Of a stretch of DNA of 32,000 nt, positions 14,503-20,283 are shown in pieces (within the stretch, counting starts at the first letter, position 1; every line of letters begins with the position of its first letter). The stretch lies in contig SUPR01000027.1 in the NCBI GenBank assembly GCA_005191425.1, forward strand, positions 5,791 through 37,790, written 5' to 3'. Made by a program: the position numbers and the translations under genes. This stretch comes from Candidatus Helarchaeota ASGARD archaeon Hel_GB_B. GTDB lineage: Archaea > Asgardarchaeota > Lokiarchaeia > Helarchaeales > HEL-GB-B. The notes under the pieces are model-generated. The model saw only the letters and a list, made by a program, of their open reading frames with translations. It searched no databases and had not been told where the DNA came from.

Positions 14503-17124
14503 TTATAAATTATCATTTTCAAATTTTTTAAAATGATTTTTTCCTTTAATTTTTTTCGTTCTTAGATGGTTATAAAAAGTGTGGTATCTTCTTTTATACC
14601 AATTTTCAATTTCATTTATATCTTCATTTGATAACTGATATAATTTATATACAAGATAATCTATTTTTGTTTGTTCATAAATAAAATATGGATATTTTTG
14701 GTCATCATGCTGCTTTTGAATGATTTTGTTGACCAAATCTTCAATCTGATACATTATAGATTTATTATCTTTGTCTATTAAAGGGATTGGAATTTGTTTA
14801 ATTCCACCAACTTGCGTGTGAACAGTTGAATTAATATAATTTTTTAAAAGATATTTCACAAGTTTTGAACATAAAATACCTAAACAAAATTCTAAACTAT
14901 AAAATTCTGTGAAAATTGTCATTCCCATTACATCAAAAACTGAAGAGTGGTTTAATCTAAAGGTCGGGGCGTAAAATCCAGTATCTGAATAGGTAATTCC
15001 TTTTTTAAAATAATATTTAAAATTTTGAAGTCTTGAAGCTATTTTATTAGAGGAAAACAATTCAATCTTGTCTTTTTTACCATAATATCTTTCTCGGTCT
15101 ATTATTGTTAAATTTTTTAATCTATTTATTGCTTCTTTTGACCAATTAATATAATAGTTTGTTGGTACCCAATAATTTGGAAGCCACCCCTCTTTGATAT
15201 TTGATTCAGCACCTTTATCATATGGAATGTATTTTTTACCACCATAATCATTGTCATCAATTCCCAATATATCTCCAGTCTTTTCATAATATCGTCTATA
15301 TTTTTTAGAGAACTCTATCAATTGTTCTCCATTTAAAATTAATTTCTTATCTACGACCTTATAATTTCCATAAACTTTTTCATTACTTTTTCTAATATAA
15401 TATTTATTATCTCCTGTCCCTAATCCTTGTTTTATTATTGATATATCTCCAAATTTTAATAAATTTAAGCGATTTCCATTAAAGATTATTTTATATATTA
15501 ACAATGATTTATTTTTAGATGGAAATGAATGTTTATCACATTCTTGGTCATTCATAAGGGAAAAAATTTTGGGGCTGGCAATAATTATTGGAATTTTCGA
15601 ATATTTTAATAATATTTTTTGCTGGTATTTATAAAAACCCACATTTGTTTTTAAAAAGTTACCATCTAGCCTATCAAAAATTAGTTTACCAAGGATATCT
15701 ATTAAAATATTTTTATTTTTAACTGGAATCCCTGTCAAATCAATTGCTTGAACATCTGAATTTAATCTTAAAAATCTGTTTTTATCACCTGGTAAACTTT
15801 TCAGGATAAATATCGAAGTGTTTACGGTAGCTTCAAATAACCAAATTGGGAGTGATACAATAAAAATTAATCCACAAGAATTTAAAACTCTCCTTCTTAA
15901 AGGTAAATGGCTCTCAATAGTACGCCAAGTATCACTCGTAAGAAAGGATAAATAACCATTCACTTTTAGAAATTCTAATGATTTGACTATAAAAGCTCCA
16001 TAAAGATCCATACTCATTAATCCAAGCTTTTTTGCAGTTTCTTTAGAAATGCCTCTTCCTCTTGCTGCATAAGGTGGATTTCCAATTATAATATCAAATT
16101 TAAATGAGATATTCGAATTATTTATTTTTAAAAAATCAGATCTTAGAAAGTTAAATTTCAAATTTCTAAACTTTAAGTTTCTACTACTTATAAAAAATGG
16201 TAGTAATATCATTAAAGCTGCAATATCCATTGCCTCTTTTTCTATATCAATGCCATATAGAGATTCGTTTATAATTTTAAATTTTATGCGTAATAATTCA
16301 TTTTTATCAATATTATTTGAATTCATAATTATCTTTTTACAATTTAACAAAATTAATGTAATATCTTCTAGAATTGAAATTAAAAAAGTGCCAGTTCCCA
16401 TTGCTGGGTCTAAAACTTTAAAATTATCAAATATCTTTATAATTTTTAAAGCATTTTCTTTATTAATAGTAGAGACATTAACATTTATGTCTTTTGAAAA
16501 TAAAATTTTTATGTCCTCTTTTTCTATGCCTAATTTCTCTTCAATATACCTAATTAATACTTTCTTGGTCAGAAAGTTTGCAATAAATTTATTTGTATAA
16601 TAAATCCCAAATCTTTTTTTCTCCGAACCTTTGTATAATTCATAAATATAACTAAAAATATCTGTACCAATTTTATATTCCTCAAAAATAAAGAATTCCG
16701 TAGAAATTTTATTTCTGGAAAAAAAGTTTAAAACAGAATTCTTCTTATTTGGGTCAAAAATTTCGTTGGGTATAAAAATATTATTAATAATTTTCCATTC
16801 TTCTGGTGTAAAATCGTCAAATCTTAAATCTATTTGATTGAAAAATTTGATATTTGACCATTCTTCTGAAAAATTATCTAAAAATCTTCTCAAAAATAAA
16901 TCAAAATAATTTCCATTATTTTTATTTACCTTAAATCTTTCAAATATGTCAGAAAAGTGTTCTTTTATTATTTTTCTATCCTTAATGAAATAATATAATG
17001 TAATTTTAAATAATAGATCTTTTACAAACTTTAAAATCAATTTCTTATTAGATAAATTTGGGTTATACTTTATTATATTTCTTACAATATTATTGTATAG
17101 GATTTTAATTTCTTTATTTGTCAT
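14503..17124 (-). CDS. N6-adenine DNA methyltransferase, Eco57I/BREX PglX-like
   Basis: Motif I VLDPAMGTGTFL, YGIDI, motif IV IIGNPPY, and DLYGAFIVKSLEFL. The C-terminal region has PglX-like motifs KQGLGTGDN, YDKG, YFKKGITYS, FDVMG and QVGGIKQIPIP. Confidence 0.88.
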   Translation of the reverse strand: MTNKEIKILYNNIVRNIIKYNPNLSNKKLILKFVKDLLFKITLYYFIKDRKIIKEHFSDIFERFKVNKNNGNYFDLFLRRFLDNFSEEWSNIKFFNQIDLRFDDFTPEEWKIINNIFIPNEIFDPNKKNSVLNFFSRNKISTEFFIFEEYKIGTDIFSYIYELYKGSEKKRFGIYYTNKFIANFLTKKVLIRYIEEKLGIEKEDIKILFSKDINVNVSTINKENALKIIKIFDNFKVLDPAMGTGTFLISILEDITLILLNCKKIIMNSNNIDKNELLRIKFKIINESLYGIDIEKEAMDIAALMILLPFFISSRNLKFRNLKFNFLRSDFLKINNSNISFKFDIIIGNPPYAARGRGISKETAKKLGLMSMDLYGAFIVKSLEFLKVNGYLSFLTSDTWRTIESHLPLRRRVLNSCGLIFIVSLPIWLFEATVNTSIFILKSLPGDKNRFLRLNSDVQAIDLTGIPVKNKNILIDILGKLIFDRLDGNFLKTNVGFYKYQQKILLKYSKIPIIIASPKIFSLMNDQECDKHSFPSKNKSLLIYKIIFNGNRLNLLKFGDISIIKQGLGTGDNKYYIRKSNEKVYGNYKVVDKKLILNGEQLIEFSKKYRRYYEKTGDILGIDDNDYGGKKYIPYDKGAESNIKEGWLPNYWVPTNYYINWSKEAINRLKNLTIIDRERYYGKKDKIELFSSNKIASRLQNFKYYFKKGITYSDTGFYAPTFRLNHSSVFDVMGMTIFTEFYSLEFCLGILCSKLVKYLLKNYINSTVHTQVGGIKQIPIPLIDKDNKSIMYQIEDLVNKIIQKQHDDQKYPYFIYEQTKIDYLVYKLYQLSNEDINEIENWYKRRYHTFYNHLRTKKIKGKNHFKKFENDNL

Positions 17125-17415
17125 TCTTTTTTCATTTATTTACATCTGTATTAAAAGAAATTATATTTTTTAAGTTGAACTTAAATAAATTTAGCATAAT
17201 AATTTTAAATTGTTAAATTATTTTAATAATTTATCTAAATTATCGCGACCTAATGTTATTTTAAAGGTTTAGATTTTGAATTAAAATTTTCAATAAGAAC
17301 TTCGAACCACTTAATAATTAATTACATTTAAGAAATCTTTTTATAAAATATGATTCATAAATATTTCAGATTTTATTTTTCTAAAAATAATCGAAAAATA
17401 ACGGAGTTAATAACC

Positions 17416-17943
17416 ATGAATGAAAAAACTGAAATTGTTACAAATTCTGGAGATCCAAAAATGTTCTATAAATGGAAATTAAATAGTTTAATTCTTCGAA
17501 TGGTATATCCTCAAATATTGAGTAATTTTGTTATAAAGTATAATCATGATATTAGTAAAATTAATAAAGCATTACTTAATATCGGAAAAAATTCAGCCCG
17601 TAGAGTTATATCTGAATTTCCAATTAAAGAGTTTAATACAAAAATTCTGATCAGAAAAATAACTTGGAGGCATTGGGGGACTAAATCCATTGTAAAAGGT
17701 AATATTAAAGATGGTGAATTAAAAATAATTGTTAAAAAATGCCCACTTTGTATGGGACTTGCTCCATTGGAGATTGAAGGTCTGCATTATTGCATATCAT
17801 TTGCAGGTTTCTTACAAGGTGCTTTTGAAGTTCTTCAAAAAAAATATAAGAAATTAATCCAAAATAAAATGACTTTTGAGACAATAGAATCAAAAGGTTC
17901 AAATGATCTAAATTGCGTCCATTTATGTAGAATTGAGGAATGA
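17416..17943 (+). CDS. Bet3 (TRAPP)-like / V4R-fold protein
   Basis: By eye it aligns along most of its length with eukaryotic Bet3 as I recall it (see findings). It also has CPLC and [15 protein letters not shown]. Start moved to the ATG at 17416 (GGAG at 17403-17406); the track starts at 17350. Confidence 0.75.
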   Translation: [175 protein letters not shown]

Positions 17944-17946
17944 AAA

Positions 17947-18579
17947 ATGGTTGTTGATAAATTAAATTTTTTTACAAAATTATTAGGTTCATTTGGCGGG
18001 AGATATATATTTAATACTGCGCAAAAAATTAATTTATATACTTGTGGGTTAATTGTTCAAGAAACTATGAAGATATTTATGGACATATATGGAGATTATG
18101 AAATTGGCATAGAAGAATTTAATGAAGCCCTCGCAACTGGTGTTAAAGAAATGATTGCCGATATGTTGGACCAATCTTATTTATTTGGAAAAGGATTGGG
18201 TGATATTGTTTCAAGAACTCCTTCTGATTCTTGTAGTGCAATTGAAATAGGGTTCTGGGCTCTGATGGGTAAGGAATCTAAACAATTAATTGAGAAACCA
18301 ATTTGGGTTCCTTTTGAACAGCCTAATGAATATATTGGTAAATTGGTAGTTGGAATTAAAAGATGCCCATTTTGCTTTGGAATGGACAAAAATATTGAGT
18401 CCAAACTAACTAAAGTTCATTACGGAGATTTTTTTGCCATTATGATCGGAGGTATTCTTCAAGAAATAATGGAATATGTTGGAAACGATTTTGAAATGAT
18501 CTCTAAAGAGACTAAATGCTTTATGCGGGGCGATGAAAAAGGTGAATTAACCATCTATTTCAAACAAAGAAAAAACTAA
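17947..18579 (+). CDS. V4R-domain protein
   Basis: IKRCPFC...HYGDFFAIMIGGILQEI...ETKCFMRGDEKGELTI is a V4R-type C-terminal pattern. It begins 3 nt after the previous stop. Confidence 0.8.
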   Translation: MVVDKLNFFTKLLGSFGGRYIFNTAQKINLYTCGLIVQETMKIFMDIYGDYEIGIEEFNEALATGVKEMIADMLDQSYLFGKGLGDIVSRTPSDSCSAIEIGFWALMGKESKQLIEKPIWVPFEQPNEYIGKLVVGIKRCPFCFGMDKNIESKLTKVHYGDFFAIMIGGILQEIMEYVGNDFEMISKETKCFMRGDEKGELTIYFKQRKN

Positions 18580-18911
18580 AAAATAGAGAAATTAGGGGTA
18601 GTAACTTTTACTAATTTTTATACAAATATTATATTTTTAATAATAGAGCTGCTTTTAAGATTAAAAATTATATTTCTAAGAAATATTTCATTTCACAATG
18701 ATAGAATTTCCAGAATTAATAAAGGAAATATTTAAAGAGATAACGATCAGTCAAGGAATTGTTGGAGAATCTATTTATCGTTTGTTTAAAATTACAGATA
18801 TTAATAGTAAAACCAAATCGGAATGTTTATAATTAAAAATACGCATTTTATAGCAATGCCGGAATTTATAAAAACTCAGAACAAATAAAATCCAATAAAA
18901 GAGAGAGATGA

Positions 18912-19883
18912 ATGAATAAAAAAGACTCCTACTCGAGAAACAAAATATTAAAAAAATTCCTGGGTTTAAAGACCTATTTTAAGTCAGCATTTCAGGAGAC
19001 CATGTCTGAGCATAGTCATTTTTCCATGTATTATTGTAATGGGGTTATGCGATTTGTGTCATATCTCAAGAAATATGGGAGAGCAATAGACAAAGGGCTA
19101 ATTCACGATATATTTAAAGTATTTTTTTCACAGTTAAAATATGGAGAGAATGGAGTCGCGATAGAAAAAGAGATGGGTAAAAAGAGGTTAGACCTATATA
19201 GAATGGTTGAGGACGAAATAATAGAAGTAAAAACGATAAGCAATATTTCGTTTAAAAAGATATTCGGGACTGTCAAATCTGTATTCAAACTGGTGCCAAA
19301 GGCTGACCGGTTATGGCTATTTTTCTTTATGAAATTAGGGGCTTCAACTCTAAAAAATAAGAAAAATGAAAAAGATAGTGTGGAAGACTTGAAATGCAAA
19401 TATTTTTTAATATTCCTTGACATAATACTATCAGGTGTAGATGACTTGACCGAAATAAATAAAGAATTAGAGAGCGGAATAAAAGAGTTAATAGAGAGTG
19501 GAGCAGAGGAATTGGACCTATCGAAGGAAATAATAATTCCATTAGAAAATGTAGTGTTTGTAGAAGATTTAAAAAGGGAGTTGGAGGAAAATAAGAGGGA
19601 GTTAGAGGAAAATAAGAGGGAACTAAAGGAAAATAAGAGGGAGTTGGAGGAAAATAAGAGGGAACTAAAGGAAAATAAGAAGGAATTAAAGAGAAAAGAG
19701 AAGGAATTAAAGGAAAAAGAGAAGGAATTAAAGAAAGAGAAAATGGAAAAAGAGAAGAAATTAAAAGAATTAAAGAGAGAATTAGAGAGAGAAAAATTAG
19801 AGAAAAAGAAAATAAAAGATGAGCTGAAGAAAAAGGAAAAAGAATTACAAGAACTTAGAAAAAAATTAAAAAACACGGAATAA
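18912..19883 (+). CDS. Putative PD-(D/E)xK nuclease-fold protein with C-terminal K/E-rich coiled coil
   Basis: IEKEMGKKRLDLYRMVEDEIIEVKT gives an E...D...ExK pattern (D at 19191, EVK at 19224-19232). Heptad repeats KRELEEN/KRELKEN follow. Confidence 0.7.
   Translation: MNKKDSYSRNKILKKFLGLKTYFKSAFQETMSEHSHFSMYYCNGVMRFVSYLKKYGRAIDKGLIHDIFKVFFSQLKYGENGVAIEKEMGKKRLDLYRMVEDEIIEVKTISNISFKKIFGTVKSVFKLVPKADRLWLFFFMKLGASTLKNKKNEKDSVEDLKCKYFLIFLDIILSGVDDLTEINKELESGIKELIESGAEELDLSKEIIIPLENVVFVEDLKRELEENKRELEENKRELKENKRELEENKRELKENKKELKRKEKELKEKEKELKKEKMEKEKKLKELKRELEREKLEKKKIKDELKKKEKELQELRKKLKNTE
19572..19739 (+). repeat. Intragenic 21-bp tandem repeat, 8 units (one heptad each)
   Basis: Units such as AAGAGGGAGTTGGAGGAAAAT and AAGAGGGAACTAAAGGAAAAT; units 3 and 5 are identical. 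The later units drift to GAGAAGGAATTAAAGGAAAAA. Confidence 0.93.
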
Positions 19884-19917
19884 ACGAAAAAGAGGGATAT
19901 GGATATACAAGAGAGTA

Positions 19918-20283
19918 GATTTAAAATACAAATATTTTTTAATATTCCTTGATATAATACTATTATGTATAGATGACTTGATTGAAATAAATAAAGAATT
20001 GTAGAGTGAAATAAAAGAGTTAATAGAGAGTGAAGCAGAGGAATTTGATGTATCAAATGGAATAATAATTATTCTAGAAAATGTAGTATTTGTGGAGGAT
20101 TTAAAAAAGGAATTAAAGGAAACAAAGCGAAAATCAAAGGAAATAGAGAGAAGATCAAAGGAAATAGAGAAAGAATTGAAGAGAGTGAAATTAGAAAAAA
20201 AGAAAATAAAAAAAGAACTGGAAAAAAGGAAAAAAGGAAAAAAGGTACAAAAACTTAGAAAAAAATTAAAAGATATGAAATAA
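19918..20283 (+). pseudogene. Degenerate copy of the 3' half of the 18912-19883 gene
   Basis: 19918-20106 aligns without gaps to 19386-19574 with 27 mismatches in 189 nt (~86%, counted by hand). GAG has become TAG at 20002-20004. There is no in-frame start before the homologous region, and the coiled coil is shortened. The track ORF 20092-20283 is its tail. Confidence 0.85.

Follow-up and report, generated by a model that had tools for sequence, protein, structure and literature searches.

Homology between V4R domains and the Bet3 family dates from the work of Podar et al. (2008, PMC2253512), in which paired G-x3-G motifs in helices α2 and α5 were described for the Bet3 family. In Asgard archaea, Zn-type TRAPPC3-like proteins are represented by the crystal structures of Thor-TRAPPC3 and by models of Loki (MK-D1) and Heimdall relatives (Tran, Akil, Senju & Robinson 2024, PMC10933270). 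Four Cys residues of Thor-TRAPPC3 coordinate Zn, as established by anomalous diffraction and as seen in PoxR; in mouse TRAPPC3, the Zn site is replaced by a Ser–Asn hydrogen bond (PMC10933270). The published Asgard proteins are described as Zn-binding homodimers: Thor-TRAPPC3 forms a homodimer in its crystals, the MK-D1/Heimdall relatives were modeled as such, and dimerization of Thor-TRAPPC3 and of Bet3 family proteins proceeds through the N-terminal helices (PMC10933270). Eukaryotic trafficking complexes may have been put together from sub-complexes that already existed in archaea, or from isolated folds only.

Here, we compare these systems with a two-gene locus in a 32,000-nt stretch of DNA (the window), which corresponds to contig C104 in a genome assembly of 3.54 Mb and 94% completeness that was also searched. 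We consider it likely that the first gene (gene A) encodes a Zn-stabilized TRAPPC3-fold protein that is translationally coupled with a divergent paralog (gene B), and that the two products form an A–B heterodimer acting as a ligand-binding or scaffold module. The features discussed below are as follows.

17403..17406, + strand: GGAG ribosome-binding motif of gene A, 9 nt before ATG 17416 (direct sequence reading)
17416..17943, + strand: gene A, ATG 17416, TGA 17941-17943, 175 aa; TRAPPC3/Bet3-fold protein with a predicted Cys4 metal site
17455..17610, + strand: N-terminal helices of gene A (residues 14-65; model helices H14-20, H22-41, and H46-65); predicted dimer interface
17740..17916, + strand: predicted Zn site of gene A, with C109 (17740-17742), C112 (17749-17751), C126 (17791-17793), and C167 (17914-17916)
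17935..17939, + strand: GAGGA ribosome-binding motif of gene B, located within the final codons of gene A (direct reading)
17947..18579, + strand: gene B, 210 aa; divergent TRAPPC3-fold paralog and predicted partner of A

The window is very low in G+C (22-29%) and its gene content is archaeal in type, including TPR and WD40 proteins, a triple-AAA ATPase, and a KaiC/GvpD-like ATPase, among others. The nearest database proteins carry Candidatus Helarchaeota labels and, in one case, a Lokiarchaeota label. DNA datasets containing this stretch are hydrothermal-vent and marine-sediment metagenomes, and no RNA datasets are listed for it. An in-frame ATG at 17350, which would add 22 residues to gene A, was rejected as the start codon; position 17416 is preferred because seven orthologs start within a few residues of it and because GGAG precedes it by 9 nt.

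Upstream of gene A lies a gene for an 873-aa Eco57I/MmeI-type (type IIG-like) N6-adenine methylase (14503-17124, − strand), which is divergently oriented with respect to the A–B operon and separated from it by a 291-bp AT-rich spacer. Downstream of the pair (18912-19883, + strand), a 323-aa coiled-coil protein carries a long tail of tandem heptad repeats with ELEENKR-type units and has no Pfam match. Purine skew is strong around this gene, and GC skew amounts to 0.37 in 18001-20000. Scans of the window for tRNAs and Rfam families were empty.

Relationship of gene A to TRAPPC3 and V4R proteins

A preliminary description of this DNA termed gene A a close Bet3 (TRAPPC3)-like protein and aligned it by recall with human Bet3. 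Alignment to mouse Bet3 (1wc8) with HMMER reproduced the register of all three quoted blocks, namely an N-terminal KLNSL...VISEF block, a 10-residue segment opposite FSLILENNPL, and an 18-residue segment opposite LIYSNLLCGVLRGALEMV. The word "close" overstates the likeness: identity is 18-23%, and the Pfam TRAPP model (PF04051) does not score gene A itself (hmmscan, E up to 10).

Used as a single query against the PDB, gene A gave borderline E values of 0.027-0.09, with TRAPPC3 accounting for all nine best matches. Single-sequence Pfam and NCBIfam assignments of A and B amounted to noise and were rejected (DUF7570, E 0.066; Lacal_2735, E 0.045). Seven orthologs of gene A, at 60-98% identity, occur in Helarchaeota/Lokiarchaeota MAGs. 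An 8-ortholog profile reached TRAPPC3 in the PDB at E 6.6e-6, and the same ortholog-only profile matched Thor-TRAPPC3 (7YH2/7YH3) at E 8e-4 and 2e-3. Searched exhaustively with a profile, 1.84 billion cluster representatives yielded only 37 related clusters, and the family alignment and profile comprise 38 sequences. This 38-member profile aligned with Thor-TRAPPC3 (7YH2/7YH3) over nearly its full length at E 2e-17 and 3.1e-17, with eukaryotic (Naegleria) TRAPPC3 at E 6.8e-10, and with TRAPPC5 at E 6e-3. Across the PDB, the ortholog and family profiles retrieved TRAPPC3/TRAPPC5 chains only, and the V4R chains of PoxR, MopR, DmpR, and MJ1460 were unmatched.

Family-level Pfam models gave a similar picture. 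At E values up to 1, the TRAPP model (PF04051) matched 8 of the 38 family members (best 4.6e-6), and the V4R model touched three of the 38 (best 0.012). A six-frame scan of the genome with PF04051 matched only the paralogs on contigs C143 and C18. The V4R model PF02830 gave no score to gene A or gene B, whereas four other genes of the same genome, located on other contigs, scored 30.7-48.5 bits, all four being at or above the cut-off of 31 bits once neighboring segments are counted. The preliminary description had named nesting among ordinary prokaryotic V4R proteins as evidence against its reading; this is not what was seen for gene A, as the profiles, the model fit given below, and the existence of separate PF02830 genes all place it outside them. 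The similarity of gene A to Bet3 is real but distant.

The AlphaFold2 model of gene A (pLDDT 88.7, pTM 0.83) contains the Bet3-type two-layer α/β fold, as judged from the model itself and from Foldseek and VIA-align comparisons. Foldseek TMq values were 0.72-0.73 (E 7e-9) against eukaryotic TRAPPC3, including mouse Bet3, 0.69 against Thor-TRAPPC3, 0.50-0.55 against PoxR, and 0.49 against MJ1460; TRAPPC3/TPC6/Trs31 chains as a whole range from 0.68 to 0.73 versus 0.49-0.55 for V4R chains. By VIA-align, the model superposes on mouse Bet3 with Z 18.6 (rmsd 2.2 Å over 150 residues) and on Thor-TRAPPC3 with Z 18.5 (rmsd 2.5 Å over 145 residues), followed by TPC6/Trs33 (Z 15.2) and Trs31 (Z 13.3). 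V4R chains span Z 11.0-13.4 at rmsd 3.7-4.4 Å, with MopR/PoxR/DmpR at Z 12.4-13.4 (rmsd 3.7-4.0 Å) and MJ1460 at Z 11.0-11.3. The superposition on Bet3 that the preliminary description had proposed thus leaves the model about 5 Z units nearer to Bet3 than to V4R.

Bet3/TRAPPC3 (1WC8, 1SZ7, Naegleria 6AQ3, and yeast 3CUE) is accordingly the best structural match of gene A, nearer than either TPC6/Trs33 or Trs31, and the two share the same register at helices α1–α2 and at the G-x3-G helix. The equivalent of the first Bet3 glycine motif is G57-x3-A61, within the N-terminal helices. The second, G131-x3-G135, falls within the span of the predicted Zn site and is invariant among close orthologs, and its second glycine is not conserved across the wider family. 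With Thor-TRAPPC3 (7YH2, 7YH3; PMC10933270), gene A shares an Asgard origin, a length of ~160-175 aa, the two-layer fold, and the lack of an acylated Cys. It differs from that protein in being only ~19-20% identical, in having an additional stretch at its N terminus that contributes to the predicted interface, and in being obligatorily linked to a divergent partner gene, with several paralogous pairs, where Thor-TRAPPC3 is described as a homodimer.

Cysteine site and missing acylation loop

Only four columns are invariant in the 38-member gene A family, and all four are cysteines: C109 and C112 of a CPLC motif, C126 of an HYC motif, and C167. Thor-TRAPPC3 (7yh2/7yh3) has four Cys in all, each of which is aligned with one of these columns, and from this we infer that gene A binds Zn through the four residues. 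Gene A contains five Cys in total (109, 112, 126, 167, and 171); conservation of H124, H169, and C171 does not extend beyond its close orthologs. Of the V4R-type cysteines listed in the preliminary description, those of CPLC and HYC and one C-terminal Cys (C167) are invariant in the 38 sequences, and the last Cys, C171, is not. At the positions of C109 and C126, mouse Bet3 has Asn and Ser, which fits the published remark on a Ser–Asn hydrogen bond at this site (PMC10933270).

V4R proteins (PF02830; PoxR 5FRU, MopR 5KBE, DmpR 6IY8, and MJ1460 2OSO) share the homologous superfamily fold with gene A as well as a Cys-based Zn site in the same region, and the conserved G-D that precedes the final Cys is also present in gene A. 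Ser159 of gene A occupies the position of the first Cys in the C-terminal C..GD..C motif of V4R proteins. Relative to Bet3, gene A has a Cys4 site in place of Asn/Ser, lacks the loop that bears the palmitoylated Cys, and falls below the Pfam TRAPP threshold; longin partners or a GEF context are not known for it. The self-palmitoylated residue of human BET3 is Cys68, in the α2–α3 loop. In the HMMER alignment, the GRCHDF loop of mouse Bet3 lies opposite a gap in gene A, and since this loop is deleted, gene A has no counterpart of the palmitoylated Cys, as had been suspected from the sequence at first reading.

The preliminary description also proposed that gene A might be an intermediate between Zn-binding V4R domains and TRAPP subunits. 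Its components are borne out, in that a Bet3-like fold, a V4R-type Cys4 site, and the absence of an acylated Cys occur together, but proteins of this type are already published for Asgard archaea. The description had itself stated that Bet3-like/V4R proteins were reported there, and they are on record for Thorarchaeota, Loki (MK-D1), and Heimdall (PMC10933270). Because its cysteines match the Zn ligands of Thor-TRAPPC3 and its acylation loop is deleted, gene A is a new member of that published class rather than a newly found intermediate. Taken alone, it is one more divergent member of the known Asgard Zn-binding TRAPPC3-like class.

A tentative alternative, in our view rather unlikely, is that gene A functions as an ordinary V4R-type sensor or carrier of a small hydrophobic ligand (hydrocarbons or lipids being possible in view of the hydrocarbon metabolism reported for Helarchaeota) and that its Bet3 likeness reflects fold ancestry only. 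The Cys-based site resembles that of PoxR/V4R, and internal cavities have been reported in Thor-TRAPPC3, for which the authors favor ligand binding (PMC10933270). One family member is labeled "predicted hydrocarbon binding protein" by JGI, and the family is multi-copy in an order that one report (10.1101/527697) treats as potentially hydrocarbon-oxidizing. A feature search of the ESM Atlas, which returned DUF5943, V4R, unnamed, and Thor TRAPP clusters at 0.88-0.94 and does not discriminate between families, placed the first three nearest (0.92-0.94) and Thor TRAPP lower (0.89). However, sequence profiles and structure put gene A clearly nearer to TRAPPC3 than to V4R, PF02830 scores other genes of the genome above its cut-off but not this one, and a ligand, a regulator output domain, and a catabolic operon are all absent beside gene A. 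This alternative concerns function and is compatible with an A–B heterodimer.

Gene B and the A–B pairs

The conserved downstream gene B is more informative than gene A in isolation. Only 3 nt separate the stop codon of gene A (17941-17943) from the ATG of gene B (17947), and this gap, together with the GAGGA motif inside the end of gene A, is consistent with translational coupling. Paralogy between the two is weak by BLASTP (E 1e-4) and clear in the alignment of their family profiles (hhalign probability 98.1%, E 1e-13). Gene B as a single sequence and a 6-sequence B profile found nothing in the PDB; a 35-sequence B profile gave a full-length match to Naegleria TRAPPC3 (4.7e-5) and further matches to yeast Bet3 (5e-3) and Thor-TRAPPC3 (0.019). 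The gene B model (pLDDT 87.3) superposes on yeast Bet3 with Z 15.5 over 176 residues, on Thor-TRAPPC3 with Z 13.1, on Trs31 and TPC6 with Z ~11.3, and on V4R chains with Z 7.9-10.1. Both the profile matches and the Z values argue that gene B is Bet3-like rather than V4R-like.

Three Cys positions are kept in gene B, comprising the CPxC pair C140 and C143 and the C-terminal C191 (at least 90% conserved). Gly replaces the HYC cysteine (HYG), and the last Cys precedes the conserved G-D instead of following it. With the third Cys absent and the C-terminal Cys differently placed, a metal site in gene B is uncertain.

Four complete pairs in A-then-B order occur in the genome, and the two genes of a pair are separated by −8 to +13 nt.

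Window: A, 175 aa; B, 210 aa
C143: A, 170 aa; B, 210 aa
C18: A, 161 aa; B, 211 aa
C74: A, 169 aa; B, 194 aa

The first 46 residues of a further A-type gene, cut by the contig end, lie at G000:C27:8679-8816 (L006), and the genome may therefore hold a fifth pair. B-type genes are present in all seven genomes of the order, at 3-10 per genome. In 32 of the loci fetched, A is immediately followed by B in the same orientation, at a spacing of −47 to +121 nt; the exceptions among the fetched loci were contig ends, one spurious match, and one B-type gene located after a different protein. The narrow ortholog group of the window gene A is confined to its own order among the 301 Asgard genomes searched. 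In the main Lokiarchaeia family, the broad B profile matches a single copy in 65 of 69 genomes, embedded in a protein of ~460-530 aa. We have not found obligatory A–B pairing or its expansion in Helarchaeales in the literature searched.

At L022 (G294:C252; 1495-2025 and 2172-2792, − strand), a B-type gene is preceded by a 206-aa protein instead of an A gene; in this B-type gene the conserved C-terminal Cys is changed to Ser, and the 206-aa protein is distantly similar to winged-helix (wHTH) neighbors of other pairs (BLASTP 3e-6). Such neighbors, conserved and of ~220 aa, were seen at L002 (2732-3400, − strand), L012 (14-670, − strand), L041 (588-1271), and L043 (517-1197), and their N-terminal domain is roadblock/longin-like by eye only. 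In Lokiarchaeia, the long B protein is directly preceded by an A-type gene in both loci fetched (L013, 688-2665, from G237; L014, 697-2560, from G165). A metagenome protein of 394 aa (P0020) combines a 220-aa N-terminal extension, which has no Pfam match, with a C-terminal A-type domain (E 5.9e-21). Apart from this 394-aa representative, a family-profile search for longer fused A forms found none, which is weak evidence.

Maximum-likelihood trees built from 32 A and 32 B sequences agree in their groupings, and the window pair is placed with the G305 pair in both. The A and B distance matrices are correlated in a Mantel test (Spearman 0.56; none of 2000 permutations reached this value), a test that is inflated by shared ancestry. 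The plain reading of these sequence comparisons is that A–B pairs would have duplicated as whole units early in the history of the order and stayed together since.

A predicted A–B complex gave an ipSAE of 0.88 (runs 0.87-0.89), compared with 0.01 for the best of three controls; 58 of 80 solved complexes attain the ipSAE mark applied, as do 2 of 110 mismatched pairs. Contacts agree across runs by at least 96%, and partner pLDDT is at least 79. The N-terminal helices form the predicted interface (A 5-64 and B 21-70), in the dimer mode of the Bet3 family, as in the Bet3–Trs31/33 heterodimers. The score may derive from resemblance to the Bet3–Trs31/33 heterodimers and the Thor-TRAPPC3 homodimer, which are already solved; it is to be read as likeness of the predicted complex to such dimers and not as binding of A to B, and it does not discriminate AB from AA or BB. 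Invariant columns were not significantly enriched in the predicted interface of A (39% versus 31%, p 0.38) or of B (47% versus 38%, p 0.26).

That gene A would act alone as a homodimer like Thor-TRAPPC3, with the adjacency of B a duplication remnant and no physical interaction between the two, follows the precedent of the Thor-TRAPPC3 crystal and of the MK-D1/Heimdall models (PMC10933270) but appears improbable, given the constant order of A before B at minimal spacing in 32 loci, the seven pair lineages kept as units, the correspondence between A and B clades, and the high-confidence prediction for AB. These features would be hard to maintain without a joint function of A and B, which they favor. 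A and B probably work as a two-subunit heterodimer.

Possible roles and significance

The picture that we favor can be set out in steps. Gene A encodes a small protein with the two-layer α/β TRAPPC3/Bet3 fold, in which a structural Zn(Cys)4 site would tie the β-sheet to a helix as in Thor-TRAPPC3. Genes A and B would be co-transcribed and translationally coupled, and their products would join through the N-terminal helices into a heterodimer comparable to Bet3–Trs31 and Bet3–Trs33 of eukaryotic TRAPP. The pair is among at least four paralogous A–B pairs of the genome and belongs to pair lineages that have co-diverged across the order. Its role may be that of a hydrophobic-ligand-binding module or of a scaffold module.

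A more far-reaching proposal, which we rate as improbable, is that the A–B dimer would be the central part of a proto-TRAPP-like platform in archaea, on which roadblock/longin-type proteins dock and which regulates small GTPases. Some paralogous pairs elsewhere have beside them the ~220-aa neighbor with a C-terminal winged helix (HTH_47/DUF742-like), and in one locus a wHTH-like protein takes the place of the A gene ahead of a B-type gene. In the genome that contains the window, a classical V4R gene extends into the beginning of one for a small GTPase, and a Heimdall longin–TRAPPC3 fusion has been published (PMC10933270). The winged-helix neighbors and the V4R/GTPase overlap hint at a connection to GTPase regulators, but they do not touch the window pair: in a tblastn search of the wHTH neighbors against the window, the best E was 0.16, with no such partner near the pair, a search of the window for GTPase, longin, or roadblock links to the pair found none, and its gene content indicates no pathway. 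Moreover, the roadblock or longin identity of the neighbors' N-domains was assigned by eye only, exchange-factor activity is known for no archaeal TRAPPC3-like protein, and GFP fusions of the Asgard TRAPPC3-like proteins showed no membrane targeting in HeLa cells (PMC10933270). A proto-TRAPP role is a minority possibility.

The V4R/GTPase arrangement is at L046 (G000:C105:24900-26400), where two genes on the − strand (146-688 and 685-1284), one of them for a 199-aa V4R protein (PF02830, 48 bits) and the other for a 180-aa Rab/Ras-like small GTPase, share 4 nt at the start of the GTPase gene. The locus looks like a V4R plus small-GTPase operon.

At its broadest, the A–B heterodimer could be taken to mean that heteromeric Bet3 blocks predate eukaryotes. 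About seven ancient, co-diverging A–B lineages of Helarchaeales would then each constitute a specific heterodimer platform for its own partners (roadblock/winged-helix proteins or small GTPases), and these would be proto-TRAPP cores of which Bet3–Trs31/Trs33 is either a descendant or a parallel. We offer this as speculation and think it doubtful.

The more immediate meaning concerns the A–B pair itself, whose small, soluble, and easily expressed proteins offer a means of probing partner specificity, ligand binding, and links to Asgard small GTPases. If the reading of A and B as a heterodimer is true, a conserved, coupled, and duplicated A–B pair would mean that heteromeric Bet3-type dimers, which are the building unit of the TRAPP core, exist in archaea.
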